Assembly: GCA_900290255.1 (NCBI GenBank)
Contig: OMOD01000122.1
Location: forward strand, 14,314 to 78,313
Direction of reading: 5' to 3'
Length of the DNA stretch: 64,000 bases
From: Candidatus Sulfotelmatobacter kueseliae
Lineage (GTDB): Bacteria > Acidobacteriota > Terriglobia > Terriglobales > Acidobacteriaceae
In this document: positions 31,989 through 50,500 of the stretch, piece by piece
How positions within the stretch are numbered: the stretch's first letter is position 1
Layout: the number at the start of each line of letters is the position of its first letter
The notes under the pieces: generated by a model
Databases searched by the model: none
The model's input: only the letters and a program-made list of their open reading frames with translations
What the model was told of the DNA's origin: nothing
Translations under genes and position numbers: made by a program

Positions 31989-32765
31989 CTAGCTCGGAGA
32001 ATTTTGGCCTGCCAGGAACCCGCCGTCGAGAACCATGCACTGGCCCGTCATGAAAGAGGCGCGATCCGAGCACATCCATACCACCGCCTCGGCCACTTCG
32101 GCCGGTCTTCCGAAACGGCCAACAGGATGGCAACTCAGAACATATTTGTGGACGTTGGGAGCCCCAAAGAGACGCTCGGACATAGACGTTTCGATCACTC
32201 CGGGGCAAACTGCGTTGATGCGAATTCCACTGCGTGCCATTTCCAGCGCGGTAGACTTCGTCAGCCCGATCACTCCATGTTTGCTCGCGCTATACGCTGC
32301 CGCCCCCGCAGACCCGACTAGGCCTGTAATCGAAGCCATGTTTACGATTGCTCCACCCTTACCCTGCTTCACCATCTGCTTAATTTCATACTTCAGGCAG
32401 AGCCAGGCACCCTTGAGATTGACTTGAATGGTCCGATCCCAATCTTCTTCGGATTGTCTGATGATCGGTGCCCAGACGCCTTCGATCCCTGCGTTATTGA
32501 AGGCTACGTCCAAGCGACCAAATCTCTCTACTGCTTTCTGGATGAGCGCTTCGACTTCGGAGGCTTTTGAGACATCGGCTTTTACGAATAGGCCCTCGCC
32601 TCCGGAGGCACGGATCAACTCGATCGTTTCCTCGCCTTCCGGCTCGCGTCGGCCCGCAATCACTACTTTTGCACCCGATTTCGCGAAAAGTACGGAGGTC
32701 TCACGGCCCACACCCGACGTCCCACCAGTGACGAGGCCGACCTTGCCTTCCAATTCTCTTGTCAT
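31989..32765 (-). CDS. Short-chain dehydrogenase/reductase (FabG/glucose-1-dehydrogenase-like)
   Basis: GKVGLVTGGTSGVGRET (TGxxxGxG), NNAG, YSASKHGVIGLTK (YxxxK), PGVIET. Confidence 0.9.
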   Translation of the reverse strand: MTRELEGKVGLVTGGTSGVGRETSVLFAKSGAKVVIAGRREPEGEETIELIRASGGEGLFVKADVSKASEVEALIQKAVERFGRLDVAFNNAGIEGVWAPIIRQSEEDWDRTIQVNLKGAWLCLKYEIKQMVKQGKGGAIVNMASITGLVGSAGAAAYSASKHGVIGLTKSTALEMARSGIRINAVCPGVIETSMSERLFGAPNVHKYVLSCHPVGRFGRPAEVAEAVVWMCSDRASFMTGQCMVLDGGFLAGQNSPS

Positions 32766-34778: not shown

Positions 34779-35184
34779 AGCTTGGTTCCTGATCTCCACT
34801 CAGCCCCTGCCTCGCTCGAATCCCTCAAAAGTCATCCTTCCCACCCGTCCATCTTCATCTTTCTGTCTTCCAAGCCGGCCTGACCTAACCCTGGAAACCT
34901 CTGACAAAACCTCGTTGCCGCGCGACTCGTACGCCGTGCGCCCGGCTGTGGCACTGCATACAAAGTGTGATGAGGTTTATCTCGGAATCCGCTCCCGAGT
35001 GACTGCGGAATTCCTTTTGGTGGACCCCGATGTTGGCCATCGTGCCGCATGTTCGGCACGGATCATTTCCAAGCAGTAGCTGCGGGATGGGTCACTCCCC
35101 AGCATCCCGGGCTCGCCCGGAACGGGCCACCGAAAGCTGCGTGGCTGGGGAGCGGATTGACTTTCAAGGTCGCTGGGGCAGTCC

Positions 35185-35430
35185 CTACGCAGCCTTTTTC
35201 ACAACACCGGGCATCTCATTCCCAGCGCCGGCAAGGGCACGGAGCTCCGAGGCCATGCAAATCAAGAAGCACACCACACTGCCCTCGAGCAGATTCCGGT
35301 CCGACAGGTCTATTTTCAAGAACAGCGCCCTCGCAATGTGGATATGGAAAATTCCCCCGCAGACGAGCGCGATCCAACCGACGTAGTAGGTAATTCTTCC
35401 AACCAGCTGCAATCGAGCAACGTGACCCAT
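35185..35430 (-). CDS. Small two-span membrane protein (paralogue of 35989-36210)
   Basis: ATG preceded by AGGAGG at 8 nt. Two hydrophobic helices. LLEGSVVCFLICMASE aligns with FLDGAMLFFVMAIASS of the divergent neighbour. Confidence 0.55.
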   Translation of the reverse strand: MGHVARLQLVGRITYYVGWIALVCGGIFHIHIARALFLKIDLSDRNLLEGSVVCFLICMASELRALAGAGNEMPGVVKKAA

Positions 35431-35741
35431 GGTGATTACCCTCCTGGCTTTTCGTTAGCTGAATGAAAAATCCTTAAAACTGGTGCAATTGACGAACGGG
35501 AGCATTGTACACGGCGAAAGAAGGCATGTTGCTGATAAAACGACACTCCCCCTTGTCACGGTATTGTTTGGTGGTGAACTTCCAAATTCGACATCAGTCC
35601 GCATAATTTGACACCGCCAGCAGTCACAGCGCAGAACCTGTTGCCTCAGTTTCTCTACGTTGCGGGATCGAGCCGCAACCGCGGCCTTGGGGCGGATTCG
35701 TTTTATGCCGCTGCCTCGCTCAGTTGCTTGAGGAAAGTTGT

Positions 35742-35795
35742 TTCTGGGCTTCGGGCAAGGGAAGAACCGCGTCACTGAAAACAGCAGAGTCTCCG
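35742..35795. repeat. Copy 1 of an imperfect ~55-nt direct repeat (second copy 36414-36471)
   Basis: ttctgggcttcgggcaagg...ctgaaaacagcag...ctccg. It shares 17/19 nt at the start and an identical 13-mer ctgaaaacagcag with copy 2. Confidence 0.8.
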
Positions 35796-35800
35796 CATCT

Positions 35801-35819
35801 CCTAATTTGCCAAATTAGG
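35801..35819. promoter_or_regulatory. Perfect 9-1-9 palindrome cctaatttg-c-caaattagg between the divergent small membrane-protein genes
   Basis: Exact inverted repeat with a 1-nt spacer, too short a loop for a hairpin and so more like a dimeric-regulator operator. Lies 170 nt upstream of ATG 35989. Confidence 0.35.
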
Positions 35820-35988
35820 ACACTGCCAACATGAAACAAAAGGCCGCAGTTGTGGGATAAGGTATACTCACGCAAAGGTAGGGGCGAGAACGCGGATTCT
35901 CGCATAACATGCTGGCATCGTTGTTCAGGTTGTGTCGGGGGGCGACGGTAGTCTCCTCCTCTGGAAATCGACGAAAAGGAGAATGAAC

Positions 35989-36210
35989 ATGGAAAAACGA
36001 CTATGCAACGCATCCTATTGGATCGGTATCGTCAGCACGGTACTTGCTGTGATCATGCGGGGGCTCGCAATAGTGGGTGTTTTTGTGTTCCCCGCATCTC
36101 CGGGGGCGATCCGGATCTCCTATCACACCTTCCTTGACGGGGCCATGCTGTTCTTTGTCATGGCGATTGCCAGTTCGGTCACCATGTGGGCTAAATCGCA
36201 AAAATCGTAG
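35989..36210 (+). CDS. Small two-span membrane protein (paralogue of 35185-35430)
   Basis: ORF 35932..36210; ATG 35989 behind AAGGAG. Two hydrophobic helices. Confidence 0.55.
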   Translation: MEKRLCNASYWIGIVSTVLAVIMRGLAIVGVFVFPASPGAIRISYHTFLDGAMLFFVMAIASSVTMWAKSQKS

Positions 36211-36413
36211 AGTGCCTGGTCGATGAAGAGCCCTTCGGCTGCGCTTGGCCCTGAAAAAGGGATGCCCAGCGCCGAGAAAAAGCAAGTGGCAGCATAGCCG
36301 TTGCCACAGTGGCCCTGTAATCAATCTGGCCCGGTTACGATCGTGTGGGTACGTGGTGGAGACAAGCCACACCGATGCCCTAGCAGCGGCTCGGACAACA
36401 GTGTCTGACCTGC

Positions 36414-36471
36414 TTCTGGGCCTCGGGCAAGAAGCGGAAGAATCGGGTTGCTGAAAACAGCAGGGTTTCCG
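36414..36471. repeat. Copy 2 of the imperfect ~55-nt direct repeat
   Basis: ttctgggcctcgggcaaga...ctgaaaacagcag...ttccg; see 35742-35795. Confidence 0.8.
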
Positions 36472-36689
36472 GATCGCCATTGTCCAAGTTGGCTCCCTCC
36501 AGAAAGTCGGCACAGATCATTCAAATCCCTCCGAGCTGTTGAAGATCGCAGCCGATCACTACCCAAACATCCGAGTGCCAGCGGCAGCATCACCATCACC
36601 TCCAACGCTTCCGATCCTAGTGGCGGTCGTGCCTGTTCCGACAACGTAATGGTCAGGGTGGAGGACAGACAGTGATTCCGCCGAAGAGA

Positions 36690-37526
36690 TCAGCTCCTCC
36701 GCTCTTGCAGATATCTCCGCAGAGCATCCTGCCAGTTGGGCATAGCAATCCCGTATGGCTGCAGGCTTCTGGCAGAGAGAACCGAGTAAGCCGGACGCGG
36801 CGCGGGACGCGCCATCCGCTCAGTACTGACCGGCCACACCTCCGTGGCCAGTCCGGCGCTCTTTACGATTTCGTGCGCGAGCTCAAACCAGGAACAGTGC
36901 CCAGCGTTAGTGATATGCACAATACCGGTCGCGCCCTTGCGGCACAGTTGGATGATCGCCCGCGCCAGATCCAGGGAATACGTGGGGCAGCCACGCTGGT
37001 CGTTCACAACATCCAGCGCGGGGCGGCTGGCCGCCAGCTTCAGAATCGTGTGCGGGAAGCATTTGCCGCCCATGCCGAACATCCACGCTGTCCTTACAAT
37101 GCAGCACTGCGGAAGGACTTCCAGCAACCGGACCTCCGCCTCCGCCTTCGACCGACCATAGATGCTCTGCGGATTCCGTACATCGTCAATCTCGTAGGGG
37201 GATGTTTTCGTTCCGTCGAAAACATAATCCGAACTGAGAAACAGGACCTTCGTGCTGACCCGCTTCGCAGCCTCAGCGACATTCACGGCCCCATCACGGT
37301 TTACCGCGAATGCCAGTTCCTGATTGCTCTCGCAGCCATCCACATCTGTGTAAGCGGCCGCCAGTACAATCCAGTCCGGCTGGTTCTTCTCAACAACCTC
37401 GCGCACGTTGGCCGCGTCGCGAATGTCCACATCCTCGACGCTGAGACCCGCAACATCGTCTCCGGTCCACTCGCGCATGAGCGCCTGACCTAGCAGGCCG
37501 GAGGCACCAAAGATCGTTACTCGCAT
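36690..37526 (-). CDS. rfbD: dTDP-4-dehydrorhamnose reductase
   Basis: MRVTIFGASGLLGQAL, AAYTDVDGCE, SSDYVFDG, YGRSKAEAE, full length. Confidence 0.9.
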   Translation of the reverse strand: MRVTIFGASGLLGQALMREWTGDDVAGLSVEDVDIRDAANVREVVEKNQPDWIVLAAAYTDVDGCESNQELAFAVNRDGAVNVAEAAKRVSTKVLFLSSDYVFDGTKTSPYEIDDVRNPQSIYGRSKAEAEVRLLEVLPQCCIVRTAWMFGMGGKCFPHTILKLAASRPALDVVNDQRGCPTYSLDLARAIIQLCRKGATGIVHITNAGHCSWFELAHEIVKSAGLATEVWPVSTERMARPAPRPAYSVLSARSLQPYGIAMPNWQDALRRYLQERRS

Positions 37527-37543: not shown

Positions 37544-38125
37544 TTACTCGAAGGTCTCGGTATCGCGGAGAGCGACGCCGCGCTGGTCTTTCGGAGATAC
37601 GATTGGCTCGCCTCCCAGTTCCCAGTCAATCTTCAAGTCCGGATCGTTCCACGCCAGCGTGCGCTCGTATTGCGGAGCGTAGTAATCGGTGGCCTTGTAC
37701 AGAACGTGTGCCTTGTCCGAAGTTACGCAGAATCCGTGGGCAAAGCCCGCCGGTATCCACAAGATGCGCCGGTTGTCGCCAGACAGGCGAACGGCTTCCC
37801 ATTGGCCAAACGTCGGCGAACCGCGGCGCAGGTCCACGGCAACATCGAGGATCTCGCCTTCCACCACCCGCACCAGTTTGCCCTGCGGATGCTTGATCTG
37901 GTAATGCAGCCCGCGCAGGACATTGCGCTGAGAACAGGAATGATTGTCCTGCACAAACCGATCCTGGATGCCCAGGTCCGCCAGGGCGCGCTGGTTGTAG
38001 CTTTCCAGGAAGAATCCGCGCCCGTCGCCGAACACGCGCGGCTCGAGAAGCAACAGGCCGGGCAGAGAAGTCGAAGTTTTCTTGAACGCATCCATCGCAG
38101 GTTTCACCACGGAAGCTTCACCCAT
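37544..38125 (-). CDS. rfbC: dTDP-4-dehydrorhamnose 3,5-epimerase
   Basis: Start taken at ATG 38125-38123, which overlaps the rfbA TGA (TGATG). LLLLEPRVFGDGRGFFLESYN, RGLHYQ, AHGFCV. Confidence 0.9.
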   Translation of the reverse strand: MGEASVVKPAMDAFKKTSTSLPGLLLLEPRVFGDGRGFFLESYNQRALADLGIQDRFVQDNHSCSQRNVLRGLHYQIKHPQGKLVRVVEGEILDVAVDLRRGSPTFGQWEAVRLSGDNRRILWIPAGFAHGFCVTSDKAHVLYKATDYYAPQYERTLAWNDPDLKIDWELGGEPIVSPKDQRGVALRDTETFE

Positions 38126-39018
38126 CAGAATACCTTCTCCGTCAAAAGCTGCAGCAGATATGCGCCGTAGCTGCTGTTCTTCATCGCGCTCGCGATCTGC
38201 TCCACCTGGGTTCGAGAGATGTAGCCGGAACGGTACGCGATCTCCTCCGGGCACGCCACCATCAATCCCTGCCGCTTTTCGATCGCCTGAATGTAGAGCG
38301 CGGCATCCATCAGCGACTCGTGCGTCCCGGTGTCGAGCCACGCCATACCACGCCCCATCACCACGACTCTCAGGTTTCCGCTTTTCAAGTAGGAGCGGTT
38401 GACGTCGGTGATCTCGAGTTCGCCGCGCGCGCTCGGTTTCAGCGATTTCGCGATCTTCACCACGTCAGAATCGTAGAAATAGAGCCCGGTAACGGCATAG
38501 CGCGACTTGGGCTGCTTCGGCTTCTCTTCGATGCTCAACGCCCGGCCTTCGGCGTCGAATTCCACTACGCCATAGCGCTCCGGGTCGTGCACCGGGTAGG
38601 CGAAAATGCGTGCCCCGCCGACGGTTTGCGCCGCCTCCCGCAAATCGCGGACCAGGTCATGCCCGTAAAAAATGTTATCGCCCAGAACCAGGGTACAGGG
38701 ACTGCCGGCAAGAAACTCTTCGTCCACGAGAAACGCCTGCGCGATCCCTTCGGGCTTGAGCTGCACCCGGTACTGCAAACGAATTCCGTACTGGCTGCCA
38801 TCGCCGAGCAGCGCCTGGAACTTGGGGACGTCGTCCGGAGTCGAGATGAGCAAGATGTCGCGAATCCCCGCCAGCATCAGCGTGCACAGCGGGTAATAAA
38901 CCATGGGTTTGTTGTAGACGGGAAGCAGGCTCTTGCCCATCGCCTGCGTAACCGGATACAGCCGTGTGCCCGATCCTCCCGCCAGAATGATGCCTTTGTA
39001 AGAAGACGTCTTGTTCAT
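38125..39018 (-). CDS. rfbA: Glucose-1-phosphate thymidylyltransferase
   Basis: [50 protein letters not shown]. Confidence 0.95.
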
Positions 39019-39031
39019 GGTCAGCTGCGCT

Positions 39032-39613
39032 TTACACAGAGTAGTGTTTTGCGATCCATTGTCGATAGCTGCTGCTCGTCACGTCCCGCACCCAGGCTTC
39101 GTTTTCGAGATACCAGGCCACGGTCTTGCGGATCCCGCTCTCAAATGTTTCCGTGGCACACCACCTCAGTTCTCGCTCGATTTTACTTGCGTTCATGGCG
39201 TAGCGGCGATCGTGACCGGGACGGTCCTTCACGAAAGTAATCAACTTCCGATGCGGAACAGGGTCACCGGGCCGCAACTCGTCGAGCAGCTCACACACCT
39301 TGTTCACGATCTCCATGTTCTTCTTCTCGTTCCCACCGCCAATGTTATAGGTCTCGCCTGGCTGTCCCTTGGCCAGCACGGTGCGGATGGCATCACAGTG
39401 GTCTTCAACATAGATCCATTCACGCACATTCTGTCCGTCGCCGTAAGCCGAGAGCGGTTCTCCGTTGCAGGCATTCAAAATCATCAAGGGAATCAGCTTC
39501 TCAGGAAATTGATAGGGTCCATAGTTGTTGGAGCAGTTCGTCGTGAGCGTGGGTAGGCCGTAGGTGTGATGGTATCCCAGTCCGCGAAGTACGTCAGCGC
39601 TCTTAGACTTATT
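39032..39613 (-). pseudogene. rfbB: 5'-truncated dTDP-glucose 4,6-dehydratase (only the C-terminal ~193 codons remain)
   Basis: Reading up from ORF 39032..39487 in frame gives ...[46 protein letters not shown]..., typical of mid-RfbB. The frame is closed by TAG at 39616-39614. No Rossmann GxxGxxG region or catalytic Tyr is found upstream in any frame. Confidence 0.8.
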
Positions 39614-39689
39614 CTAAGCGCACGTGGGAGTCTTTCTGCATGATACCTTCTTGAATCCTCGGCAATACTTAAGCGCCTAAGTATCCTCA

Positions 39690-39705
39690 CCTATGTATAC
39701 ATAGG
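39690..39705. promoter_or_regulatory. Perfect 16-bp palindrome cctatgtatacatagg flanked by 11-nt direct repeats gcgcctaagta (39673-39683, 39705-39715)
   Basis: Exact self-complementary 16-mer, 71 nt upstream of ATG 39776, in the low-GC junction region. Confidence 0.35.
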
Positions 39706-39775
39706 CGCCTAAGTAAAAGTCAAGAACTTTTTTGGTTGATTTCGCCCATTCGGAAGATTAGCTTCTAGATCATCT

Positions 39776-39961
39776 ATGGCCAGGAAAAAGAATCCGAATG
39801 CCGTCGCCCTGGGAAAGCTGGGTGGTTCGAAGGGTGGCAAGATCCGGGCGGCCAAGTTAACTCCGGGAGAAAGAAGCGAGATTGCGCGCAAGGCTGTTCT
39901 GGCTCGGTGGGCCAAATCTAGGGAAAAAGCCCGGGAGCACGGCCCGCACGACGAAACCTGA
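39776..39961 (+). CDS. Small basic hypothetical protein (61 aa)
   Basis: MARKKNPNAVALGKLGGSKGGKIRAAKLTPGERSEIARKAVLARWAK... is a Lys/Arg-rich small ORF of a type common in soil bacteria. No function known to me. Confidence 0.4.
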   Translation: MARKKNPNAVALGKLGGSKGGKIRAAKLTPGERSEIARKAVLARWAKSREKAREHGPHDET

Positions 39962-40553
39962 TCGGCTGACATTCCCTCGAAATTGAGCAGAACCAACTTG
40001 GGTAGTTTCTCACCCGGCATCATCCGATTGTCTTGGTCTAAAACAGCCCGCTACCCACTTTCATGCCTTTTCTCACTTATCCTCGAGTGATAGGATAGAG
40101 GCGAATATAAGGCGAATATCGGATCGCGGCGAGGATTTAGCAGGAGATGGCAGCGACTAACTCGAGCAGGAGGCATATCCAATGCGGTTCAACTCGAAAA
40201 GCGACTGGCCCGGCTCGAAAAGCGCGTGGCGGAGAAGACAACCAGCTAGCCTGCTGAGGCTGGGAAAGGTCCTATCGATCAGTAGGAATAACAACTGACG
40301 GTGAGGGTCAAAACCAAAACATCGCATCTATTTGGAACGAATTGGGGCATGATTGCGCCAAACGCTGACGTTGTTAAACCAGTTATAAACTGCCGGTTAC
40401 GTTTGTAACCTGCAACGTATTCTTTAATTCGGACTATTCATTGTCCTATACTCGGTAGGTAGAACCCTTAATCCGAGTTTTCCTCGGTCGTCGCGAGGCA
40501 GGCAAAACATCGAGTTGAAATGCGCCGGGGCCAAAAGACCATGTCAAGAAACC

Positions 40554-40700
40554 TTAAGGCGCGGCTGGCAAGAGAAGGGACTGGCGAGTGATGAAGTATG
40601 CGTGATCTGAACACATCCATACCACCGCCTGGGCCACATCGGCCGGTCTTGCGAAACGACCAATAGGATGGCAACTCAGAGCGACATTGTGAACATAGCC
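40554..40700 (-). pseudogene. 3' fragment of an SDR gene, paralogous to the end of 31989-32765
   Basis: Translation [38 protein letters not shown]... aligns with [39 protein letters not shown].... At the DNA level 40612-40680 vs 32071-32139 is 64/69 identical by hand alignment. No N-terminal SDR part is present. Confidence 0.75.
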
Positions 40701-40766
40701 GAGAGAGTACTCAGTTGGGAGTAGCTGCACCCACCGCTCCAACAAAACACAGAGGAAACTTGCATT

Positions 40767-41018
40767 ATGGAAGAATTGTTGACCAAAGTGCGGACGGCCT
40801 TTCAATCAGCGTTCAGCATTGATCCGCAGACCGTTACTATTGACACTGTACCAAGCGACGTTCCGGCTTGGGACTCCATGGGACATGTCACGCTGGCTAG
40901 TAGCCTCGAACAAGCCTTCGGCTTGACTTTCGATGTAGACGACCTGATGGCGATGGAGGACGTGAAATCAATCTGCCGGGTCGTACAATCCAAGCTAGGT
41001 CAGGTTCAACGTGCGTAA
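40767..41018 (+). CDS. Acyl carrier protein
   Basis: 83 aa; DVPAWDSMGHVTLASSLEQAFGLTF contains the DSxx attachment motif. Confidence 0.8.
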   Translation: MEELLTKVRTAFQSAFSIDPQTVTIDTVPSDVPAWDSMGHVTLASSLEQAFGLTFDVDDLMAMEDVKSICRVVQSKLGQVQRA

Positions 41019-42507
41019 TGGTATTGAGGGGAACTTCGCGCGCTGTCTGGTTGAGCGTTTGGGAGAAACCTCCTGTTTGATTGACGCGGCAACTGGGCAG
41101 ACCGTTCCTAGTCATGATCTCCCCAATCTGATTGTCGGTTTCGCGGCCGGTCTCCGATCGGCCGGACTGGGGCCGGGTGACAGGATGTTGGTGGGTTGTC
41201 GCGTGAGTCCAGCCAGCACGTTGGCCTACCTCGGCGCCATGTACGCCGGAGTGGTACCCGTGCCGACAGAAGAGCGCCTGCTGTCCGCCTCCGGAGGTTT
41301 CCTGCTAGCTCAGTCGCAAGCTAAAGTCGTATGGACCGACAAAGGGACCAAGTGCGATTGGCTGAAGAGCCATAGCGTCTGTCACATCGAAGGAACTTTC
41401 GAGGCCTGTTCTCCCGACTCGCTCCCGCCGCACCCTTGCGCAGAGAATGATCTCGCCGTCTTGATGCCGACGTCAGGTTCTACAGGCGTGCCTAGGTTGG
41501 TCATGGTCGCTCATAGCAACTTGAAGTCCAATACGGAAGCGATCATTCGCAGCCAACGTCTAGGAACCGATGAAAGGGCCATGCTGATCATGCCGGTGAG
41601 TTATTGCTTCGGCGCCAGCGTGATGCACACTCACCTTTATCAAGGCGGCGGAGTCGTCTTTGATTCTCGGTTCATGTTTCCGGACAAGGTGCTGCACGCC
41701 ATCAACACCTATGGCTGCACGACGTTTGCTGGAGTTCCGGTCATTTACAACGTTTTGCTCCGGCGGTCGAATCTCAAGTCGATCCCCCTGCCTAGTCTGC
41801 GCCGTTTTCTTCAAGCCGGAGGTGCGCTTGCTCCTGAAAATGTGCGGGAGATGCGCCACATCGTACCCACCGCAGAATTTCTGGTCATGTATGGCCAGAC
41901 CGAAGCCACAGCACGGATTTCCTGTCTGCCCAAGGCTCGTTTACAGGAGAAGCTGGGGAGCGCGGGCATTCCACTGGACAATCTTGAGGTCCGCATCGTG
42001 GATGAGGAAGGACGGGAAGTACCGCAGGGGCAGATCGGGGAAATTCAAGTCCGAGGTCCGTCGGTGTGCTTCGGATACCTGGATGATCCCGAATCTACCG
42101 ACCGCAAGTTCGGCGGCGGCTGGCTTAAGACCGGCGATTTTGCCTGTTGCGATAAAGATGGATATCTTTGGATCAAAGGGCGCACGGACGAGTTCATCAA
42201 AATTCGTGGCGTTCGGGTAAGCGTTGGTGAAGTCGAGACCAAGGTGGCGGCCATGCCCGGCGTTAGCGAATGTGCGGCGGTGGCAGTGAAACATCCAGAG
42301 GCCGGTGAAGCCTTGGCGCTACTGATCGTTCCTGACAACAGCGCGACAGAGAGCGCGGTTGCTGAAAATCATGGGGATGACCTCGGCGATCGAATCCGGC
42401 GCGCACTTCCGCCGCACTGGACCTGCGCTTCCGTCAAGATAGTCGCTGAATTGCCGAGAACAACGAATGGCAAGATCGCCCGTTCTCAGTTGCAGACGTT
42501 GTTATGA
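41011..42507 (+). CDS. AMP-dependent synthetase/ligase
   Basis: VLMPTSGSTGVPRLVMVAHSNL, YGQTE, WLKTGDFA, GKIARSQL. GTG start overlaps the ACP stop. Confidence 0.9.
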   Translation: MRNGIEGNFARCLVERLGETSCLIDAATGQTVPSHDLPNLIVGFAAGLRSAGLGPGDRMLVGCRVSPASTLAYLGAMYAGVVPVPTEERLLSASGGFLLAQSQAKVVWTDKGTKCDWLKSHSVCHIEGTFEACSPDSLPPHPCAENDLAVLMPTSGSTGVPRLVMVAHSNLKSNTEAIIRSQRLGTDERAMLIMPVSYCFGASVMHTHLYQGGGVVFDSRFMFPDKVLHAINTYGCTTFAGVPVIYNVLLRRSNLKSIPLPSLRRFLQAGGALAPENVREMRHIVPTAEFLVMYGQTEATARISCLPKARLQEKLGSAGIPLDNLEVRIVDEEGREVPQGQIGEIQVRGPSVCFGYLDDPESTDRKFGGGWLKTGDFACCDKDGYLWIKGRTDEFIKIRGVRVSVGEVETKVAAMPGVSECAAVAVKHPEAGEALALLIVPDNSATESAVAENHGDDLGDRIRRALPPHWTCASVKIVAELPRTTNGKIARSQLQTLL

Positions 42508-43667
42508 GCCAACTGGCAGAGCCTCGGTTAGCAGAACTCGAGCAGGCTGTCGGAGCGTTGCTGGATAAGCCGCCATACGCGGTGCCTCCCAGCGAACGTC
42601 GCGAGGCCTTGCTTGCCCTGTTCAAGCAGGAACTGAGCTACGCCTGCGACCGCAGCCAGCAGTTCCGCAATTACGTGCGGCACTGGCCAATCAGCTTGTC
42701 GGCCGCAGATGCGGTTGCCGATCTTCCATATCTGCCGGTCAGTACGTTCAAGGCCAATCCACCGTTGAGCCTGGTCGAGACCCGCGACATCAAGCGTACT
42801 CTCTCCTCCAGCTCGACCAGTGGCCAGATTCCCAGCCGGGTGGTTCTGGACGCCGCCACAGGCCGGCGGATGACCAGGGGCGTGACGGCGATCATTCGCG
42901 ATTTCATCGGACCGGCGCGCAGGCCCTATCTGGTCATCGATATACCAGAGAACTTGAAACCACAGGTTGAGCTGGGTGCGCGAGGCGCTGCCATTCAAGG
43001 TCTTGGCTCTTTCGCCACGGAAACTGTGTGCTGCTTGCGCCGTGACGATGCAGCAGATTCGGTCCTCGAGCTGGAGAAGCTTCTTGCCTGCGCTGAGAAA
43101 TGGAGAGACAGCGCAGTCTTGGTGTATGGGTTCACGTATGTGATCTGGACCCAGTTCGTGCAGCCCCTGCAGCGCCAAGGCGTCACGCTGCGCATGCCCA
43201 ACGTCCACGTCCTACACAGCGGCGGATGGAAGCGGCTGGAGCAGCAGGCAGTGACGAAAGACGCGTTCATGCGCGGCGTGGCTTCGGTCTTTGCCTGCAG
43301 CGCAGACCGTGTCATCGATTACTACGGTATGGTGGAGAATGTGGGCGTCGTTTATCCAGATTGCGAGCACGGCCACAAGCATGTACCCACGTTCGCGGAG
43401 GTGATCATCCGCGATCCGCTGACACTCGCGCCCGTCGAAGCCGGGCAGCAAGGACTGGTTCAAGTCTGCAGCGTTCTGCCCACGAGTTTTCCCGGATTCC
43501 TGCTGCTGACCGACGACATGGCGGAACTGATCGGTCAGGATGGTTGCCCATGCGGACGGCGCGGCACGTATTTCCGCTTCACGCGGAGGGTGCCAAAGGT
43601 GGAGGTGCGAGGCTGCGGCAATCTGGAAACCACCCGCTCGCGGCAAGGGACAGGTGCGCATGAGTGA
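42504..43667 (+). CDS. LuxE-like acyl-protein synthetase family protein
   Basis: LPYLPVSTFKANPPLSLV, LSSSSTSGQIPSRVVLD, LHSGGWKRLE. The overall layout resembles the LuxE/F390-synthetase-like adenylate-forming family. ATGA overlap with the upstream gene. Confidence 0.7.
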   Translation: MSQLAEPRLAELEQAVGALLDKPPYAVPPSERREALLALFKQELSYACDRSQQFRNYVRHWPISLSAADAVADLPYLPVSTFKANPPLSLVETRDIKRTLSSSSTSGQIPSRVVLDAATGRRMTRGVTAIIRDFIGPARRPYLVIDIPENLKPQVELGARGAAIQGLGSFATETVCCLRRDDAADSVLELEKLLACAEKWRDSAVLVYGFTYVIWTQFVQPLQRQGVTLRMPNVHVLHSGGWKRLEQQAVTKDAFMRGVASVFACSADRVIDYYGMVENVGVVYPDCEHGHKHVPTFAEVIIRDPLTLAPVEAGQQGLVQVCSVLPTSFPGFLLLTDDMAELIGQDGCPCGRRGTYFRFTRRVPKVEVRGCGNLETTRSRQGTGAHE

Positions 43668-44916
43668 TGTGATCCATTCGATTACCTCACCTGAGGAGAT
43701 CAACCGCGCGGCGCGGCAACTGCGGGAAACCGCGCTCGAAGCGGATCTCAGCCCTGACGTGGTGCTTGAAGTTTTCGAGCGGTGGTCTGCTGCCTTGGAT
43801 GCGCCAGGCCTGCGCGACGTTCCTGGTGCGGCCTTTCTCCGTCTCTGGCTCCGGCGCGGCACGTTGCAGCCGATTTTGCTCCGCGAGCTGGGCCCAGAAT
43901 CACTTCATGGTGGATGGCGGGAGGAAGGGCATGCCCGGCTGAAAGCATTTCCTCTGGGAGTAGTCGGTCACTGGCCGGCCGGGAACATTGAGATCCAGCC
44001 CGTCCTGTCTCTCACGTGTGCCTTGCTCGGCGGGAATGGCTGCTTGGTGCGGGTACCGAGCGGGTTGGTCGAGACAACGCGCCTGATCTTGGAAAAGCTG
44101 CTAGAGGTTGATCAGGCGGGTCTATTGACCAAGCGCCTATTCCTAGCCAGCTTCGATCATGCACGCACCGATTTGCACGCGGCCATAGCGCAGACCGTAG
44201 ACGGCGCTATGATCTGGGGTGGTGCCGAGTCAGTCTCGGAGGTGCGAGCGTTGCCCTTTCCTCACTGGGCGCGCGTGGTGGTCTTTGGTCCACGGCTCTC
44301 GGTGGCGGCGATGGATGCGGGCGCATGGGGCTGCCGGAACGAGCGGCCGTCGTGGTGCCGGCGCATCGCACGCGACGTGTGGCAGTTTGAGCAGCAAGCC
44401 TGTTCCTCGCCGCAGACGTTGTTTCTCGAGCGCGGCGACGACTGCGATCCCGGCGAGTTTGTCGAAGATCTGAAGTGCGCTTTTCAGGAGGAGAACCGAG
44501 CACATCCGCGGCGGGAAATCGAACCGGCGTTGACCTCGGCAATCTGCCAGGCCCGCGCGTCCTGGCTCTTAGATGATGCCGCGAATCGTGCGTGGTTTCC
44601 CGGGTCGCCCGATTGGACGATCTTACTAGGGAAAGGAGTGGACATACCTGAGCCGACGCAAGGCCGAACGCTCAGCGTGCTGGTCGCGGAGGACCTTATG
44701 GAGGTGGTCTCGCGATTCGATGGGACCGTGCAGACGCTGGGGTTGGCGATCAAGGACGCGGCGCGGGAGGAAACGCTAGCTGCGGCTGCAGGACGTCACG
44801 GAGTGGACAGGGTGGTGCGGCTTGGCCAGATGCATGTTTTCGGCTCCCCGTGGGACGGGGTAGATTTGGTGCGGCCGATGGTGCGTCTGGTTCGGCATGT
44901 GTGTTCGCAGGATTAG
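43660..44916 (+). CDS. LuxC-like acyl-CoA/acyl-ACP reductase family protein
   Basis: ORF 43540..44916; ATG 43660 overlaps the upstream stop by 8 nt. FPLGVVGHWPAGNIEIQPVLSLTCALLGGNGCLVRVPSG and EQQACSSPQTLFL resemble the LuxC (aldehyde-dehydrogenase-like) family. Confidence 0.7.
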   Translation: MSDVIHSITSPEEINRAARQLRETALEADLSPDVVLEVFERWSAALDAPGLRDVPGAAFLRLWLRRGTLQPILLRELGPESLHGGWREEGHARLKAFPLGVVGHWPAGNIEIQPVLSLTCALLGGNGCLVRVPSGLVETTRLILEKLLEVDQAGLLTKRLFLASFDHARTDLHAAIAQTVDGAMIWGGAESVSEVRALPFPHWARVVVFGPRLSVAAMDAGAWGCRNERPSWCRRIARDVWQFEQQACSSPQTLFLERGDDCDPGEFVEDLKCAFQEENRAHPRREIEPALTSAICQARASWLLDDAANRAWFPGSPDWTILLGKGVDIPEPTQGRTLSVLVAEDLMEVVSRFDGTVQTLGLAIKDAAREETLAAAAGRHGVDRVVRLGQMHVFGSPWDGVDLVRPMVRLVRHVCSQD

Positions 44917-44940
44917 AGCTGGAGTGGGAGAGAAGTCCAG

Positions 44941-45840
44941 ATGAATCATGCAGAACTTTTCCTGGAAGCCTTGGATCGAAAGGCCAAGATCTTTGCCCCC
45001 AATGCCCGCGCCACATTCGAAGCCAACCGGGAGCTGTGCTCGTGGTTGCTGAGTCCGCTGGCACGGTGGGCTGAGGCAGCTTACGGGAGCAACGTATTTG
45101 ACGAGGCCGCACGCGGCTACGCCGAATATTGCTTCGGCGTGGCCAAGGCCAAGCAGGTTTACGAACGCGCCGGCAGATACACTCCCGAAGCCATGCCGGA
45201 AATCATGTCCGGGGTCTATGAGCATGAGGGCTACATGATTCCGTACATGTGGGCAGCAATTCTCATCTATCCGTTTTGGCCGTCGATGGTCAGCCATATT
45301 GCGCTATTCCGCGACGAGTTCGTGCGGCGGTTACCCCGAAATGCCAGTGTGCTCGAGCTGGCCTGTGGCCATGGCGTGTTAAGTCTTCTGGCTGCCGAGG
45401 AGCGCCCGGACATTCAGGTCGAAGGTACCGATATCAGCGCACCCGCCGTGGCCGTAGCCAATCGCCTGCTGGCTGTTTCCCGACACGCGGGCCGCGTTCG
45501 CTTCGCAGTCCAGGACGCACTGCAACCCGACAACCAAGGCGGGAACGGAAAATGCCAGGGCGTGATCTCCGCCATGCTGGCCGAGCACCTGATGGATCCA
45601 AAGCCGCTGTTTGCGACGATGGGGCGGCGCGTCGCGCCGGAAGGACTGGTATTCTTCAGTACAGCTCTGGAGTCGCCGCAGCGGGACCACGTGTTTGAAT
45701 ACAACCACGAGAGCCAGCCTCTGCAGATGGCCGAGATTGCTGGGCTGCGGGTGACCCGGCTCGTATCCGATGCCAGTGCAATACCCACCGGATCACGCTT
45801 CCTGCCCCGGGCCACGGCCATGATTCTGAAGTCTCGCTGA
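44941..45840 (+). CDS. Class I SAM-dependent methyltransferase
   Basis: VLELACGHGVLSLL (motif I), DISAPAV, a Rossmann-type layout. Confidence 0.75.
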   Translation: MNHAELFLEALDRKAKIFAPNARATFEANRELCSWLLSPLARWAEAAYGSNVFDEAARGYAEYCFGVAKAKQVYERAGRYTPEAMPEIMSGVYEHEGYMIPYMWAAILIYPFWPSMVSHIALFRDEFVRRLPRNASVLELACGHGVLSLLAAEERPDIQVEGTDISAPAVAVANRLLAVSRHAGRVRFAVQDALQPDNQGGNGKCQGVISAMLAEHLMDPKPLFATMGRRVAPEGLVFFSTALESPQRDHVFEYNHESQPLQMAEIAGLRVTRLVSDASAIPTGSRFLPRATAMILKSR

Positions 45841-46126
45841 TTAGACAACCCAGACAGGCGTTACAGCCACCCTCAAACAAGGCCTGTGCCGCACTACCAG
45901 CGGCAGGCCAATCCCTATCTGACCTCCACTATTTCCGAGTACTTCTCCCGAAGATGCGATTGTCGTGGATGAATCAACGACCTCGGGGCGGAAGATGGCG
46001 GCAGCCATGAAATGGGTTTGGATCGAAATCGAGGGCACAATGCCGTTCTCTTCACGTCGGTAGCGGTTAGCGGCGAAACGTTCTCCGCCGAGCTACGCCG
46101 CCGCATCGGCGTCAGGTTCCACGGGC

Positions 46127-47200
46127 GTGTACGGAACTGCTCCGCAGTTTGGCATCTATGGCGTGGCCACGGGCAGCGGCAACTCGGTGGGTGTGTACGG
46201 TAATGGCGTCGACGGCCTGCAGGGCGCCGGCACCATCCACGGCGTCTACGCCAACGGCACCCAATACGGCGTCACCTCCTTCACTTCTGCCGGCGTTGCG
46301 GGAATCTACGGGGTTTACGGAGGCGCAAGCGGAACCGGGCAGACCTGGCTTGATAACACAGGCACTGGCGGCGCCGTTTGGGCTGACACCATTAGCCCCA
46401 CCGGCGGTTACTTCATCCCCGCCTTGCTCGCCACGACCGACAATAACGAAGCAGCTGTCTTCGAGAACAATTCAAACGATTACGAAACGATCGACGTTTA
46501 CAACTATGGGAGCGGGGGCACCGGCAACGTCGTGCGCGCCGAGGGCAGCACGGGAAGTTGCACCCTCACCGGCGGCGGTGACACCGCCTGCACGGGCGTC
46601 CTGAAGTCCGTGGTTGCAACCAGCCAAGGTGCGCGGCGGGTCGAAACCTACTCTGTACAGTCATCGGAGAACTGGTTTGAAGATGCGGGCACGGCCCAGC
46701 TTGTCAATGGAGCCGGCCGCGTCAACCTGGAATCCGTCTTCGGGCAAACTGTGAATACCGGCGTCGAATATCACGTCTTCCTGACTCCGGACGGCGACTG
46801 CAAGGGGCTCTACGTCAGCGCCAAAACAGCGTCCGGTTTTGAGGTACACGAACTCGGCGGCGGCACTTCCAGTGTCGCATTCGAATACCGCATCATGGCC
46901 AAGCGCGTAGGTTATGAGAGCGTCCGCCTTGCGGACGTCACGGAGCGATTCAACCGACAAGAAGCACGAAGCAAGAACATGCGGCGACCTGCGCGGTCGT
47001 CAGCTGATCGGCGATCCAGTTCACGGATAACAACGCCGCCGCCAGTGCATCCAGTGGTCGAGCAACAACTGGCCCCGAAAATGCTGGTGCTGCCGGTTCT
47101 GGCATCGGCTGCGCCGCTGCCAGCGCCGGTAACGCCCAAGCTGACACCCACGCCGCCAGTCCGGGCTGCGCTGCAACCGATGGCTGCTCAACCCAAGTAA
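46127..47200 (+). CDS. Gly-rich GxYG-repeat protein with conserved C-terminal domain; no signal peptide, possibly 5'-truncated
   Basis: GTG start. Repeats GIYGV/VGVYGN/HGVYAN/GIYGVYGG are followed by ETYSVQSSENWFEDAGTAQLVNG...YHVFLTPDGDCKGLYV...FEYRIMAKRVGYE and a Pro/Ala-rich tail. Confidence 0.45.
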   Translation: MYGTAPQFGIYGVATGSGNSVGVYGNGVDGLQGAGTIHGVYANGTQYGVTSFTSAGVAGIYGVYGGASGTGQTWLDNTGTGGAVWADTISPTGGYFIPALLATTDNNEAAVFENNSNDYETIDVYNYGSGGTGNVVRAEGSTGSCTLTGGGDTACTGVLKSVVATSQGARRVETYSVQSSENWFEDAGTAQLVNGAGRVNLESVFGQTVNTGVEYHVFLTPDGDCKGLYVSAKTASGFEVHELGGGTSSVAFEYRIMAKRVGYESVRLADVTERFNRQEARSKNMRRPARSSADRRSSSRITTPPPVHPVVEQQLAPKMLVLPVLASAAPLPAPVTPKLTPTPPVRAALQPMAAQPK

Positions 47201-47232
47201 GTGCTGTCGGCAGATAACACCCTGCGCTGCCG

Positions 47233-47263
47233 AGGGGACCAAGGCTCCAAGCCACGGTCCCCT
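47233..47263 (+). terminator. Candidate hairpin downstream of 46127-47200
   Basis: aggggacc (47233-47240) pairs with ggtcccct (47256-47263), an 8-bp stem with a 15-nt loop and no T-tract. Confidence 0.2.
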
Positions 47264-47539
47264 TCGGCGCAGTATGCGAACAGGGATCGTGCTAGGGAAG
47301 CAGTAGCAAACGGAAAGCATAGAAACGCCGCTCGGTCGCTCGGGCAGCTTTTCTTTGTGAAAGAACCCCGTCAGGGGCGCGAACCTGCAATGAGCTTCTT
47401 CTTGGGATGGTTTCTTCTTGCCTTTTGAGGCTGATGGTTCTGTTACGCGCTCTTGACTCAGCCCTCGGCCTCGCAACAGATTCCGCGTGTGGGACAGGTG
47501 CGTTGGTCGAACGCTTACGTTTCAGAAGGCCAGGACCTC

Positions 47540-47564
47540 GCTCGCCATCTCAGTTTTGGCGAGC
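47540..47564 (-). terminator. Candidate hairpin just downstream of the NRPS-PKS stop
   Basis: gctcgcc (47540-47546) pairs with ggcgagc (47558-47564), a 7-bp stem with an 11-nt loop, 12 nt after the stop at 47576. No U-tract. Confidence 0.2.
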
Positions 47565-47575
47565 AAAGCCTGGCG

Positions 47576-50500
47576 CTAGTCATCAAAGTTAAGGCACCAC
47601 TCTCCATCCAAACGTGATAGGCTGGCGTCCCCTCGAACTAGGAGTTCCAGAAGTTCGGGCTTGCGAGAGTGCGCGATTGTCCAGCCACCGCGGCCGCATG
47701 TGAAGAAACAATTTTTCTGCGATAAGGCGTCCATCAAGTGGATTGGAGCAGTCCCGTGGAGGCCGACCGCGCCTTGACTCCAGGCATCGTAGAAAAGATG
47801 GTCAAGAATGTCCTTGCCGAACCGGCTCTCACCACCGATCTGCACCGCTTGGGCCACATCGCCAATCTTCGGATAGTAGATATACCAGCCAACGACCTTC
47901 TGACGGTCATCACGAAGAACAATCTTCCGCAGTTCTGACCGGGGGTGCATCCGCTCCATGAACGTCAAGAGCCATTTCAGCGAATCGACTTCATAATCAG
48001 GCAGAATTGAATGGTCACTGCGGAATTTCGCTAAACAGTGAAGAAGCACTTCAACGTCTAGCTCTGCGGCCTGCAGATGAGACGGGATCGGACGTAAGGG
48101 GCTGAAGGGAAGTCTTGCACCGATGGCGTCCACGACGCTACAAAAGGGTCTTGCGGCAATCCTAAGGCTGGCGGAGAGCGTGGGCCCCGCTAACTTGGAC
48201 ATGGCGTGGGCAGCGTAATTCGTCAGCCGCAAGGGGCGTGCCCAGTGCATGCTCAAGGGCATAATAGTCCTGAAGCCCATTCGTTCCAGCAGACTCCTAG
48301 ATATATCGTTTGCTGAATCCGTCAACGAAATGTCCTGCTCTCCTGCCATGTACGCCGTCAGCAGACGCAAGCCAGCCAGCGAGGACCGCGCCTCCGGAGC
48401 AACCACAAAATTGCCACCAACGGCGATGCAAAGCGGCCGTCCGCGGAGAGACATTTTCCGTCGGACTACACCTAGGAAGCCTACAATTCTGCCGTTCTTG
48501 CCTTCATAAACACGGGAAGGCGTTCTCTCGTCGATCAAAGGACTCCTGAAATAAAGCTCCTCAAAATATGAGTGGAGTCCGGACGGAGGAGCGCCCTTGC
48601 CGTAACGCAGGAATTTCCACCACAGGTCCGCTACCTGCGGGATATCGTCGACAGCAAACGGGCGCAGACCCGGATCTTTCCGCGCCAACCCTAGCGAAGG
48701 CCCATCTTCCGCCTTCATACCCCGCCCGAGAACACTCGCCAGTTTTCGTGGGGTAGGGGCATCGTAAAGAGCCGCGAGCGGCGGGGTGCATCCTAACTCG
48801 CTTTGGATCAAGGCGAACAACTGCGCCGCAGCCACGGAGTGGCCGCCTAAAGCAAAAAAGTCGTCGTCTGGCCCAATCTCGCTGCCATTCAACACACGCT
48901 GCCAAAGCGGGATCAAGGATTGGACTAACGTGGCCTCCGACATCCCGGAGATGGTCGGCGTATCCGAGAATTGCTGTGGCGCCCCGGGTGTCGAGCCCAA
49001 AGCCGGCGACACGGATTGCCGCGTCATTTCTCGGTTTGGAATGCGTTTGTAAACGATCTCAGTGGCGGAAGCAGTCTCGCTCCACTTGAGCCGGGCTAGC
49101 TGCGTTACTTTCCGTGAAGGATCGGCCGCCAGCTCTTCAAAGATGGAGCCTAGCGTCACCAGCCATTCTCGTACGGTAAGATCCGCAAAGAGCTTGATGT
49201 CATAGTGGCAGTGCAACGCCAGGTTTTCTTCTGCCTCCACCACATTCAGATAAAGCTCGAACGATTCGAAAGCCTTGGGGTTGGCCTCGTAGTCGACGGC
49301 AAATCCGAATTGCGGTAACTCGTTTTGCTTGAACTTCTTGATGTTGGTAAGTCCAACCGAGATCGGGGAAATGCCAGGCGTAGGCGCAGCCGGGTGGAGA
49401 TCTTCCATCAAGCTCACCATTGTAAAGATGGCGTGCTCGTGAGCGGCGAGAAGATCGGCTTGTACGCGCTTTAGGAAAGCCTCCGCTGCTTCGCCTTCGC
49501 GTAACTCCACGGCAAAGGGAAGAAGGTTGACGCAGTGTCCGACGAGACCAGGCTGTCCGATAGACGGTTGTTCCGCAGTGGGCAGAGTGATCACAAAGCG
49601 ATGCTGCCGCGAGATGCGGGCTAGCAGAATGGCCAGAGAACTGAGCAGGACCGCGAAGAAGCTGCAGTTATGTTCGGCTCCCAGCGCTCTGAGATCGCGC
49701 ACTACCGAGGCTGAAATCGAGTGATCGAGACGGCGGGCGTTGAATTCACGCCGCGCACTCCGCGGGTGGTCTGTCGGAAGCACGAGCACGGGGAAACCAT
49801 CATGGAATTTCGCGTGCCAATAGTTGCCCGCTTGCTTGAATTCTGCGGAGCGCTCCCGCTCCGTTGTGTTCTTCACGTAATCGCCGTAACTGTCTGCGAG
49901 CTCTAGGTGCACAGGCGCACCTGAGAGTTCTTCCGAATAGAAGGCGCAGAGATCGTGGATCAGGACATCCAGCGACCAGCCATCGCAAATAATGTGGTGT
50001 GCCGTGATGATGACCGCAGCACGCTCGGCACCGAGCAAAACCATTTGGCAGCGGAACAGAGGGCCTGCGGGCAGAGGGAACGGCAATGCTGTTTCATCGG
50101 CAATCAGTTTGCGGAAACGTTGCTCTTGCCAGTCCGGTTCGTTGGCCGGAACCTGCATTGAGAGATCAGTCACCGGCATCGCGATCTTCAGGGCCGGGGC
50201 GATCTTCATCATCCTGCCAGTTTCGTCGAAACTGGTGCGTAGGGCGTCATGTCGTTCCACCAGACGTTCCATGGCGCCCATCATTTTCGCGACTGAGATC
50301 TTGCCGGTGAATCGCAGCGTCATGGATTCGTTGTAAGACGCCGACAAGCGCTCGGACAAACGCGAGGACGAGAAAATACCCCGCTGCGGAACCGTAGCTT
50401 CGATATCGCGTGGACTGGAACGCACGATGGCGGGCTTCGAACCATCTGTCGATAATTTCTGGACCACCGGCGTCTCATCTTCCGCGGCTATGCGATTTCC

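Follow-up and report, generated by a model that had tools for sequence, protein, structure and literature searches.

Genes and Remnants at the rfb Locus

The window considered here is a 64,000-nt stretch (C45:14314–78313) of the metagenome-assembled genome (MAG) of Candidatus Sulfotelmatobacter kueseliae, an assembly of 5.39 Mb in 198 contigs, 96% complete and with 8.46% contamination. On its minus strand it carries a 3' remnant of rfbB, the gene for dTDP-glucose 4,6-dehydratase (the remnant is written 'rfbB below), followed by intact rfbA, rfbC, and rfbD genes for dTDP-rhamnose synthesis; remains of a phage-like element lie on both sides of this block. An earlier description made from the DNA letters alone, here called the sequence-only reading, had seen a headless rfbACD operon whose rfbB is cut off at its 5' end, and had offered two alternatives: a second rfbB elsewhere together with a new promoter, or a pathway that died recently. 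For comparison, the rfbB fragment was searched against 299 other genomes of the genus, 273 of which match it; rfbB copy number was sampled in 61 genus genomes, and the rfb operon was inspected closely in nine relatives.

The minus-strand frame at 39032–39610 is open for 192 codons without a frameshift, and an in-frame TAG lies upstream at 39616–39614, as had been described. Within this frame, 'rfbB occupies 39032–39580, where model matches, a DNA profile, and protein matches across the genus all point to the C-terminal ~180 residues of RfbB. It aligns with positions 162–321 of the 321 in TIGR01181, at 252 bits against an equivalog cut-off of 365.1, and with positions 173–347 of the 355 in PRK10217; a six-frame hidden Markov model (HMM) search of the whole assembly again gave a partial match (TIGR01181 positions 153–321, 251–252 bits). 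It fails TIGR01181 membership by score and by coverage alike. The C-terminal substrate-binding domain is present, as 180 residues that are 71–77% identical to RfbB proteins of the genus. Absent are the N-terminal Rossmann NAD-binding domain (GGAGFIGS in relatives) and the catalytic Tyr-x-x-x-Lys (SPYAASK in relatives), since the homology begins beyond this motif, at YHHTYG. Without the NAD-binding domain and the catalytic Tyr and Lys, the fragment cannot yield an active dehydratase, and 39032–39580 is, on its sequence, a dead, 5'-truncated, non-functional rfbB remnant. The open reading frame (ORF) at 39032–39487 would be better annotated as an rfbB pseudogene fragment.

The missing ~173 codons, which include those for the Rossmann domain whose absence had already been pointed out, were found neither in the window nor elsewhere in the assembly. 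A DNA profile of 1062 positions, built from 10 rfbB genes, gave nothing for positions 1–518 in 39000–41100, and six-frame HMM, tblastn, and DNA profile searches detected no orphan 5' half in the 5.39 Mb. Nor did these searches find an N-terminal half contiguous with the fragment in another frame: HMM, tblastn with the full-length RfbB of a relative, and nhmmer returned only a complete rfbB on contig C57, discussed below, and weak matches to paralogous dehydrogenases.

What remains of the gene has diverged without a look of decay, as it deviates at 8 of 105 positions that are invariant in ten other sequences, a proportion similar to that in the intact C57 gene (9 of 106). The two are 74% identical at the protein level over the 180-residue homologous core, and 71% over the 192-codon frame. 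Pairwise dN/dS values for 'rfbB against relatives proved unusable, synonymous sites being saturated. Internal starts in the frame (TTG/ATG at 39487/39484) are not preceded by a ribosome-binding site.

The stop codon of 'rfbB is separated by 13 nt from the start of rfbA. The three genes that follow on the minus strand are rfbA (glucose-1-phosphate thymidylyltransferase, 38125–39018), rfbC (dTDP-4-dehydrorhamnose 3,5-epimerase, 37544–38125), and rfbD (dTDP-4-dehydrorhamnose reductase, 36690–37526). All are intact, as the sequence-only reading had it: each matches its equivalog model over the full length and above the cut-off (TIGR01207, 481.9 bits against 361; TIGR01221, 261.7 against 156; TIGR01214, 291.5 against 224). 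Their proposed translational coupling stands on less firm ground. The TGATG at which rfbA and rfbC would overlap is there, at 38127–38123, but rfbC may start either at ATG 38125, overlapping rfbA, or at ATG 38095, both being permitted by relatives; the overlap is plausible, not certain.

The Junction Upstream of 'rfbB

The limit of rfbB homology lies at 39574–39580, at (L)GYHHTYG. All blastn alignments with nine genus relatives stop at 39574, the rfbB DNA profile aligns from 39575, at profile position 519 of 1062 (envelope to 39593), and, among the matches listed for the 273 genomes, nearly all begin at fragment residue 11–12. Next to it is a right junction zone of 56 nt (39576–39631) with no demonstrable parent, which contains the TAG and a hairpin (39597–39621). 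When these 56 nt were compared with shuffled versions of themselves, 94% of the shuffles scored equally high against rfbB and 52% against gene X, the phage-type gene that adjoins the zone on its other side.

These results bear on the nature of the TAG, which had been placed at about the position of the catalytic YxxxK. That placement is not supported: by the shuffles the junction zone is not significantly rfbB-like, and the homology begins at 39574–39580. A TAG in place of the catalytic Tyr, proposed from a resemblance to ASKAASDHLVRA, is likewise unsupported, as the 56 nt do no better than shuffles. By eye and in a MAFFT alignment it is tempting to see a mutated SPYAASKAASDHLVRA in SADVLRG and the TAG, but neither the genus-wide protein alignments nor the shuffle tests support this.

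The small hairpin that had been said to coincide with the break exists, as an inverted repeat CTTAGA-CTTAT-TCTAAG at 39602–39618 that extends to 39597–39621 with a 2-nt bulge, but it is nothing special. There are 122 perfect 6-bp hairpins in the window, and the fold energy of the junction hairpin (−12.7 kcal/mol) is equalled or bettered by 11% of 41-nt windows. With this ordinary frequency and energy, and no U-run, a function as a recombination or terminator signal was rejected; the hairpin is without demonstrable role. The change to low-G+C sequence at the break was confirmed, with a drop to 0.46–0.52 over 39.5–40.9 kb of the window. A scan of 34.5–41.5 kb against Rfam gave no credible match.

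Remains of One Phage-Like Element on Both Sides

To the right of the junction zone, 39631–39961 corresponds to a module conserved in seven genomes of the genus. Its small divergent ORF, at 39776–39961 on the plus strand (61 aa, MARKKNPNAVALGKLGG...), has 83% protein identity to the copy in a relative, genome G015, and matches PHROG 2384 (E = 7e-7); across the genus modules this ORF has 57–61 aa, and in seven genomes it is kept together with a pair of palindromic boxes. In the window a repeat search placed these boxes at 39697–39715 and 39665–39684. In the module generally they are 19 nt long, with a consensus of about TACTTAGGCGCCTAAGTA, and lie 32 nt apart between the 61-aa ORF and gene X. 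One of them falls within the spacer of an early promoter-like site on the minus strand (39665–39723), which consists of TTGACT at 39723–39718, an 18-nt spacer, and TATACA at 39699–39694; the counterparts in relatives read TTGACA, 18 nt, and TATAAA or TATAAG. The −35 and −10 hexamers and the boxes are all kept in genomes G267, G253, G162, G180, G284, and G015. Taken together, the boxes and the 61-aa ORF have the look of a switch by which the element would control divergent promoters through operators. The promoter-like site is 80–130 nt upstream of the rfbB break and points at the operon.

Gene X (250–252 aa, PHROG 22961) comes straight after this promoter in five relatives and in G015. The window retains a stub of gene X, X', at 39609–39641 on the minus strand: an ATG (39641–39639) behind GAAGG, 10 codons in all, and a TAA (39611–39609), recognized by alignment with five genus genomes and out of frame with 'rfbB. 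Similarity to the element module runs from 39783 to 39631, stopping three to four codons into X, and an X-module profile aligned with nhmmer also reaches down to 39631 (envelope to 39611).

The far side of the rfb genes is made of DNA of the same element. A left element remnant of low G+C (34936–36562, minus strand) comprises the 3' end of element gene p245 and repeated partial copies. The p245 end itself (PHROG 17202, residues 184–235 of 245) is at 36562–36407, with 63% identity over 52 residues in tblastn with the G015 protein; partial repeats of this end and of its downstream region are at 35563–35802 and 34942–35049. Blastn puts the left flank at 73–83% identity to the element copies on contigs C119, C191, C148, and C107 of the same assembly, with order and orientation preserved. 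A left junction zone of ~120 nt (36563–36689) separates the p245 fragment from the stop codon of rfbD; 53 nt at 36524–36576 match C191:78694–78746 at 89%.

Intact copies of the element carry a four-gene module in the order X (252 aa, PHROG 22961), p142, a PD-(D/E)XK exonuclease (PHROG 1218, Pfam PDDEXK_1), and p245 (PHROG 17202). This order is complete in G015, in four copies in the present assembly, and on one IMG/VR contig, which has terminase-like ORFs on the other side of the module. On the minus strand of the window the order is promoter, X', the rfb block ('rfbB, rfbA, rfbC, rfbD), 'p245, and the element downstream region. The ~3.0-kb rfb block thus occupies the exact place of the ~2.5 kb from X to p245 in intact copies, and the phage-type genes to its left and right belong to one element and are collinear with those copies. 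No integrase or structural genes were found beside the scar, which does not qualify as a complete mobile element. As far as gene content can tell, the element is decayed here to a scar of ~5.6 kb (about 34.9–40.5 kb) inside a polysaccharide and nonribosomal peptide synthetase–polyketide synthase (NRPS-PKS) locus.

The four complete modules elsewhere in the assembly are at C107:32968–35799, C119:3824–6517, C148:463–3152, and C191:73063–75733, with fragments on C64 and C82; their proteins are 70–91% identical to those of the G015 copy. At C191:67100–73250, the p245 3' end and its downstream region recur in four to five tandem-like units of ~1.4 kb downstream of the module; partial copies of this region number three in the window, at 34942–35049, 35563–35802, and 36407–36520. 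Gene X has no match in Pfam and no sequence match in the PDB, and its AlphaFold model (pLDDT 49.5) was too poor for a fold search.

Beside the element genes is a C-terminal fragment of a short-chain dehydrogenase (residues 205–257; 40527–40694, minus strand), which covers positions 193–229 of the 236 in Pfam adh_short_C2. Its intact paralogue is at 31989–32765 (57% over 56 residues by tblastn), with 86% nucleotide identity over 101 nt at 32039–32139, and by these alignments the fragment adds another gene remnant to the scar. In two relatives (G012, locus L036; G008, locus L037), a cassette of acyl carrier protein (ACP), ligase, LuxE, and LuxC genes comes immediately after the NRPS-PKS gene, with both on one strand. 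The cassette of the window (40735–47576) is inverted relative to the NRPS-PKS gene and 7 kb from it; this inversion and separation indicate a rearrangement breakpoint just upstream of the ACP gene, beside the scar.

Other rfb Genes in the Assembly and in Relatives

A full-length rfbB stands alone at C57:25401–26468 (356 aa; TIGR01181, 507 bits). Of the two alternatives offered by the sequence-only reading, a second rfbB with a new promoter is therefore the one that has gained ground, the conserved promoter-like site upstream of the rfb block being a candidate for the latter. The neighbors of the C57 gene, a DUF1175 protein and an 832-aa ORF, are unrelated. Short multi-copy repeats lie between the 832-aa gene and rfbB, and in relatives the 832-aa gene is conserved and unlinked to rfbB; from these two observations, the C57 rfbB was relocated or acquired, and the repeats suggest how it moved. 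One of them, ~160 nt long and resembling a miniature inverted-repeat transposable element, lies ~100 nt downstream of rfbB; copies 88–94% identical are found at C57:25141–25298 and C57:22067–22227, and the repeat is also on C72, C56, C155, C118, C12, C66, C176, and C53. A second short repeat family, present in relatives too, is right beside it.

A second set of rfbA, rfbC, and rfbD is split across two contig ends, with the 5' part of rfbA on C100 and rfbC and rfbD on C150. A run of Ns at C150:241–250 falls inside the second rfbC. Identity to the window is 98% over the 240 nt of C150 that precede the gap, and 87% past it; what looked like a 26-codon deletion in this rfbC is the scaffold gap. 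Two rfbACD copies evidently troubled the assembler. The flanks of C100 and C150 are those of the rfbBACD operon in relatives, with LuxR, Wzz-like, and GT4 genes upstream and a GGDEF protein and others downstream, which identifies this as the ancestral rfb locus. Synteny of the window with the rfb locus of relatives was also looked for, and there is none beyond the operon, the syntenic locus being C100/C150. At C100:712–851 (loci L019/L031) the GT4 gene is followed by a 140-nt spacer and then by rfbA, with no trace of rfbB. This spacer includes a terminator-like hairpin and, after it, a T-run that leaves only ~35 nt to the start of rfbA, and the second rfbACD is therefore also without an obvious promoter.

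Between the two sets, DNA identity is 87–98%; similarity stops at 36681, 9 nt beyond the rfbD stop, and 18 nt inside rfbA. Window RfbA is 93% identical to the C100 copy (dN/dS 0.11–0.19), and RfbD 85% identical to the C150 copy (dN/dS 0.15); dS is 0.18–0.24 for rfbA and rfbC and 0.54–0.56 for rfbD. In trees, window RfbA and RfbD are sister to the C100/C150 copies within the genus, with support of 100/99 and 100/98. The dN/dS values of 0.11–0.19 between copies indicate purifying selection on both since they diverged. With a second rfbACD copy and such values, the other alternative, a recently dead pathway, is not borne out, and it would be wrong to list the pathway as absent or dead on the strength of the window locus only, since other contigs of the assembly hold a full-length rfbB and another rfbACD.

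A full rfbB lies directly upstream of rfbA in all nine relatives inspected, and an rfbB that passes the cut-off is present in 56 of the 61 sampled genomes, in most cases as a single copy. Nearly all the rfbB matches listed, among the 273 genomes, are in open frames of at least 350 aa. A truncation in genome G014 that looked similar turned out to be a contig end. In another relative (G001, locus L010 on C4), rfbC aligns in two frames (residues 1–145 and 136–193; about 2990–3569 of the oriented locus), which suggests a frameshift or sequencing error.

Origin of the Block

In the explanation we favor, to which we would give a probability of roughly 65%, a segment of ~3 kb, 'rfbB-rfbA-rfbC-rfbD, came, by copying or transfer, from an ordinary rfbBACD operon of the same or a sister lineage, and illegitimate recombination placed it within the phage-like element's early operon. 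A single replacement would have removed X (from about codon 4–10), p142, the exonuclease gene, and p245 (to residue ~183). On this account rfbB would never have been complete at this site. The truncation would be the right edge of the captured segment, and probably not an in-place cut, because both flanks are collinear remnants of one element; in the earlier picture of a headless operon, the truncated rfbB stands, and the implied beheading on the spot probably does not. The rfbACD genes have the orientation of the element's early operon and lie behind its promoter-like site, operator boxes, and X' mini-ORF, and nothing resembling a terminator was found on the minus strand from the promoter-like site as far as rfbA. 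Their transcription might start from the captured early promoter, with a leader of ~680 nt, and the C57 RfbB might supply dTDP-4-keto-6-deoxyglucose in trans; both suppositions are included in the probability given.

A number of points weigh against this account. The exact breakpoints and the mechanism cannot be read from the junctions, because the 56-nt and ~120-nt zones match neither parent, and 'rfbB has no close source that would point to the donor operon, being at most 77% identical to any RfbB among the 299 genus genomes (74% to that on C57), whereas rfbA and rfbD are 85–93% identical to the second copies. In the tree 'rfbB is outside the main genus rfbB clade, as is the C57 gene. The promoter is a consensus-like site only; its −10 hexamer lacks the final T, and a consensus promoter scan, which demands T at position 6 of the −10, does not list it. 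Even a working early promoter may be repressed in a lysogen. No ribosome-binding site is obvious in front of rfbA itself, and the ~540 nt of untranslated 'rfbB upstream of it could cause polarity. A motif in gene X may hint at a recombination protein, which the Pfam and PDB searches and the structure model did not confirm. Finally, with 8.46% contamination in the MAG, the three rfb loci might come from two co-binned populations.

If rfbB was instead truncated where it stands, a complete second rfbBACD would once have been present here; the element would have integrated next to it, and later deletions would have taken the element body and the 5' half of rfbB, a further event trimming the other side. 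X' is indeed upstream of 'rfbB on the same strand, one deletion could form the right junction, and remnants with mobile-element scars at their junctions are common in polysaccharide loci (PMC3715488). We nevertheless think this course of events unlikely, in that the left side too is element DNA, the 3' end of p245, and collinear, so that a second element copy and a second deletion would be needed; moreover, the two rfbACD copies cease to resemble each other 9 nt after the rfbD stop codon, and no native flank follows downstream. Somewhat less likely still is an artefact of assembly or binning, with C45 chimeric near 39.6 kb, or the loci from co-binned strains, and rfbB intact in the organism. 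The material invites the suspicion, as a MAG of 198 contigs with the contamination mentioned and with an assembly interrupted by the near-identical second rfbACD (C150 and C100 each stop within rfbA, and the N gap at 241–250 falls in C150), and an exact search of JGI metagenome contigs with a junction 28-mer found no match. A random mis-join would not be expected to tie the block, at both junctions, to collinear parts of one element, as is seen here; no k-mer of at least 17 nt from 39560–39660 recurs in the assembly, which also has no orphan rfbB 5' half, and C45 outside rfbACD is almost free of duplicates in the bin.

It is very improbable that 'rfbB still has a function, whether as a C-terminal protein of ~150 residues from the TTG/ATG at 39487/39484 or through translation that couples ribosomes to rfbA. 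The frame of 192 codons without a frameshift, the short (13-nt) distance to rfbA, and a number of deviations at invariant positions no higher than in the intact C57 gene (8/105 against 9/106) might be expected of a working gene, but a recent event explains the open frame equally well, and the internal starts lack a ribosome-binding site. No similar truncation is conserved among the genus genomes searched, where shorter frames are few and the only one checked (G014) is a contig end. No activity is known for an extended short-chain dehydrogenase that is reduced to one half and lacks the NAD domain.

The favored capture of a segment by the element could be carried a step further, into what must be regarded as a doubtful proposal. 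A temperate acidobacterial phage-like element may have taken three of the four genes for dTDP-rhamnose from a host operon and put them behind its early promoter, under operator control, as a module resembling those of lysogenic conversion. This module would later have been fixed in the exopolysaccharide and NRPS-PKS locus of a genome in which the genus-wide rfbBACD is split over three loci. If so, phage-type regulation would have a part in the making of a surface polymer that contains rhamnose.

Comparison with Known Systems

With the canonical rfbBACD (rmlBADC) operon the window shares the B-A-C-D order, the short gaps, and rfbA, rfbC, and rfbD genes at equivalog level. It differs from the operon in all nine relatives inspected in that its rfbB is without codons ~1–173, and from the canonical arrangement in that the pathway of this genome is spread over three loci: the rfbB on C57, the rfbACD at the ancestral site, and 'rfbB-rfbACD in the window. 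An operon conserved over about 270 genomes of the genus has been dismantled in one lineage, and the locus would show a phage-like element and illegitimate recombination reshuffling sugar-precursor genes in an acidobacterial exopolysaccharide cluster. Should the captured promoter be active, the supply of rhamnose precursor would be tied to a phage-type switch.

Phage morons, or lysogenic-conversion cassettes, are host-derived genes that lie between phage genes and often alter surface polysaccharide. The sugar genes of the window similarly lie between phage-type genes, in the orientation of the phage operon and behind its promoter-like site. Unlike a moron, the insert has replaced early genes that look essential, and the element is only a scar with no sign of an active phage; a cargo of three nucleotide-sugar genes without their own first committed step is also unusual.

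In the O-antigen clusters of Salmonella, gene remnants are found beside the scars of mobile elements, with the function supplied from outside the cluster; examples are the wzy remnants of groups B1 and D1, and the H-repeat or insertion sequence (IS) remnants at the D2 junction (PMC3715488). The window presents the same combination of a partial sugar-pathway gene, a mobile-element scar, a polysaccharide locus, and a copy outside the cluster. It departs from the Salmonella cases in that the scar is a phage-like early operon and not an IS or H-repeat, and in that 'rfbB probably marks the edge of a captured segment and not decay in place. That polysaccharide loci hold remnants next to the scars of mobile elements is well known, and no general principle is altered: 'rfbB is a gene remnant at a recombination junction, a further case of a known kind, the recipient this time being a phage early operon.

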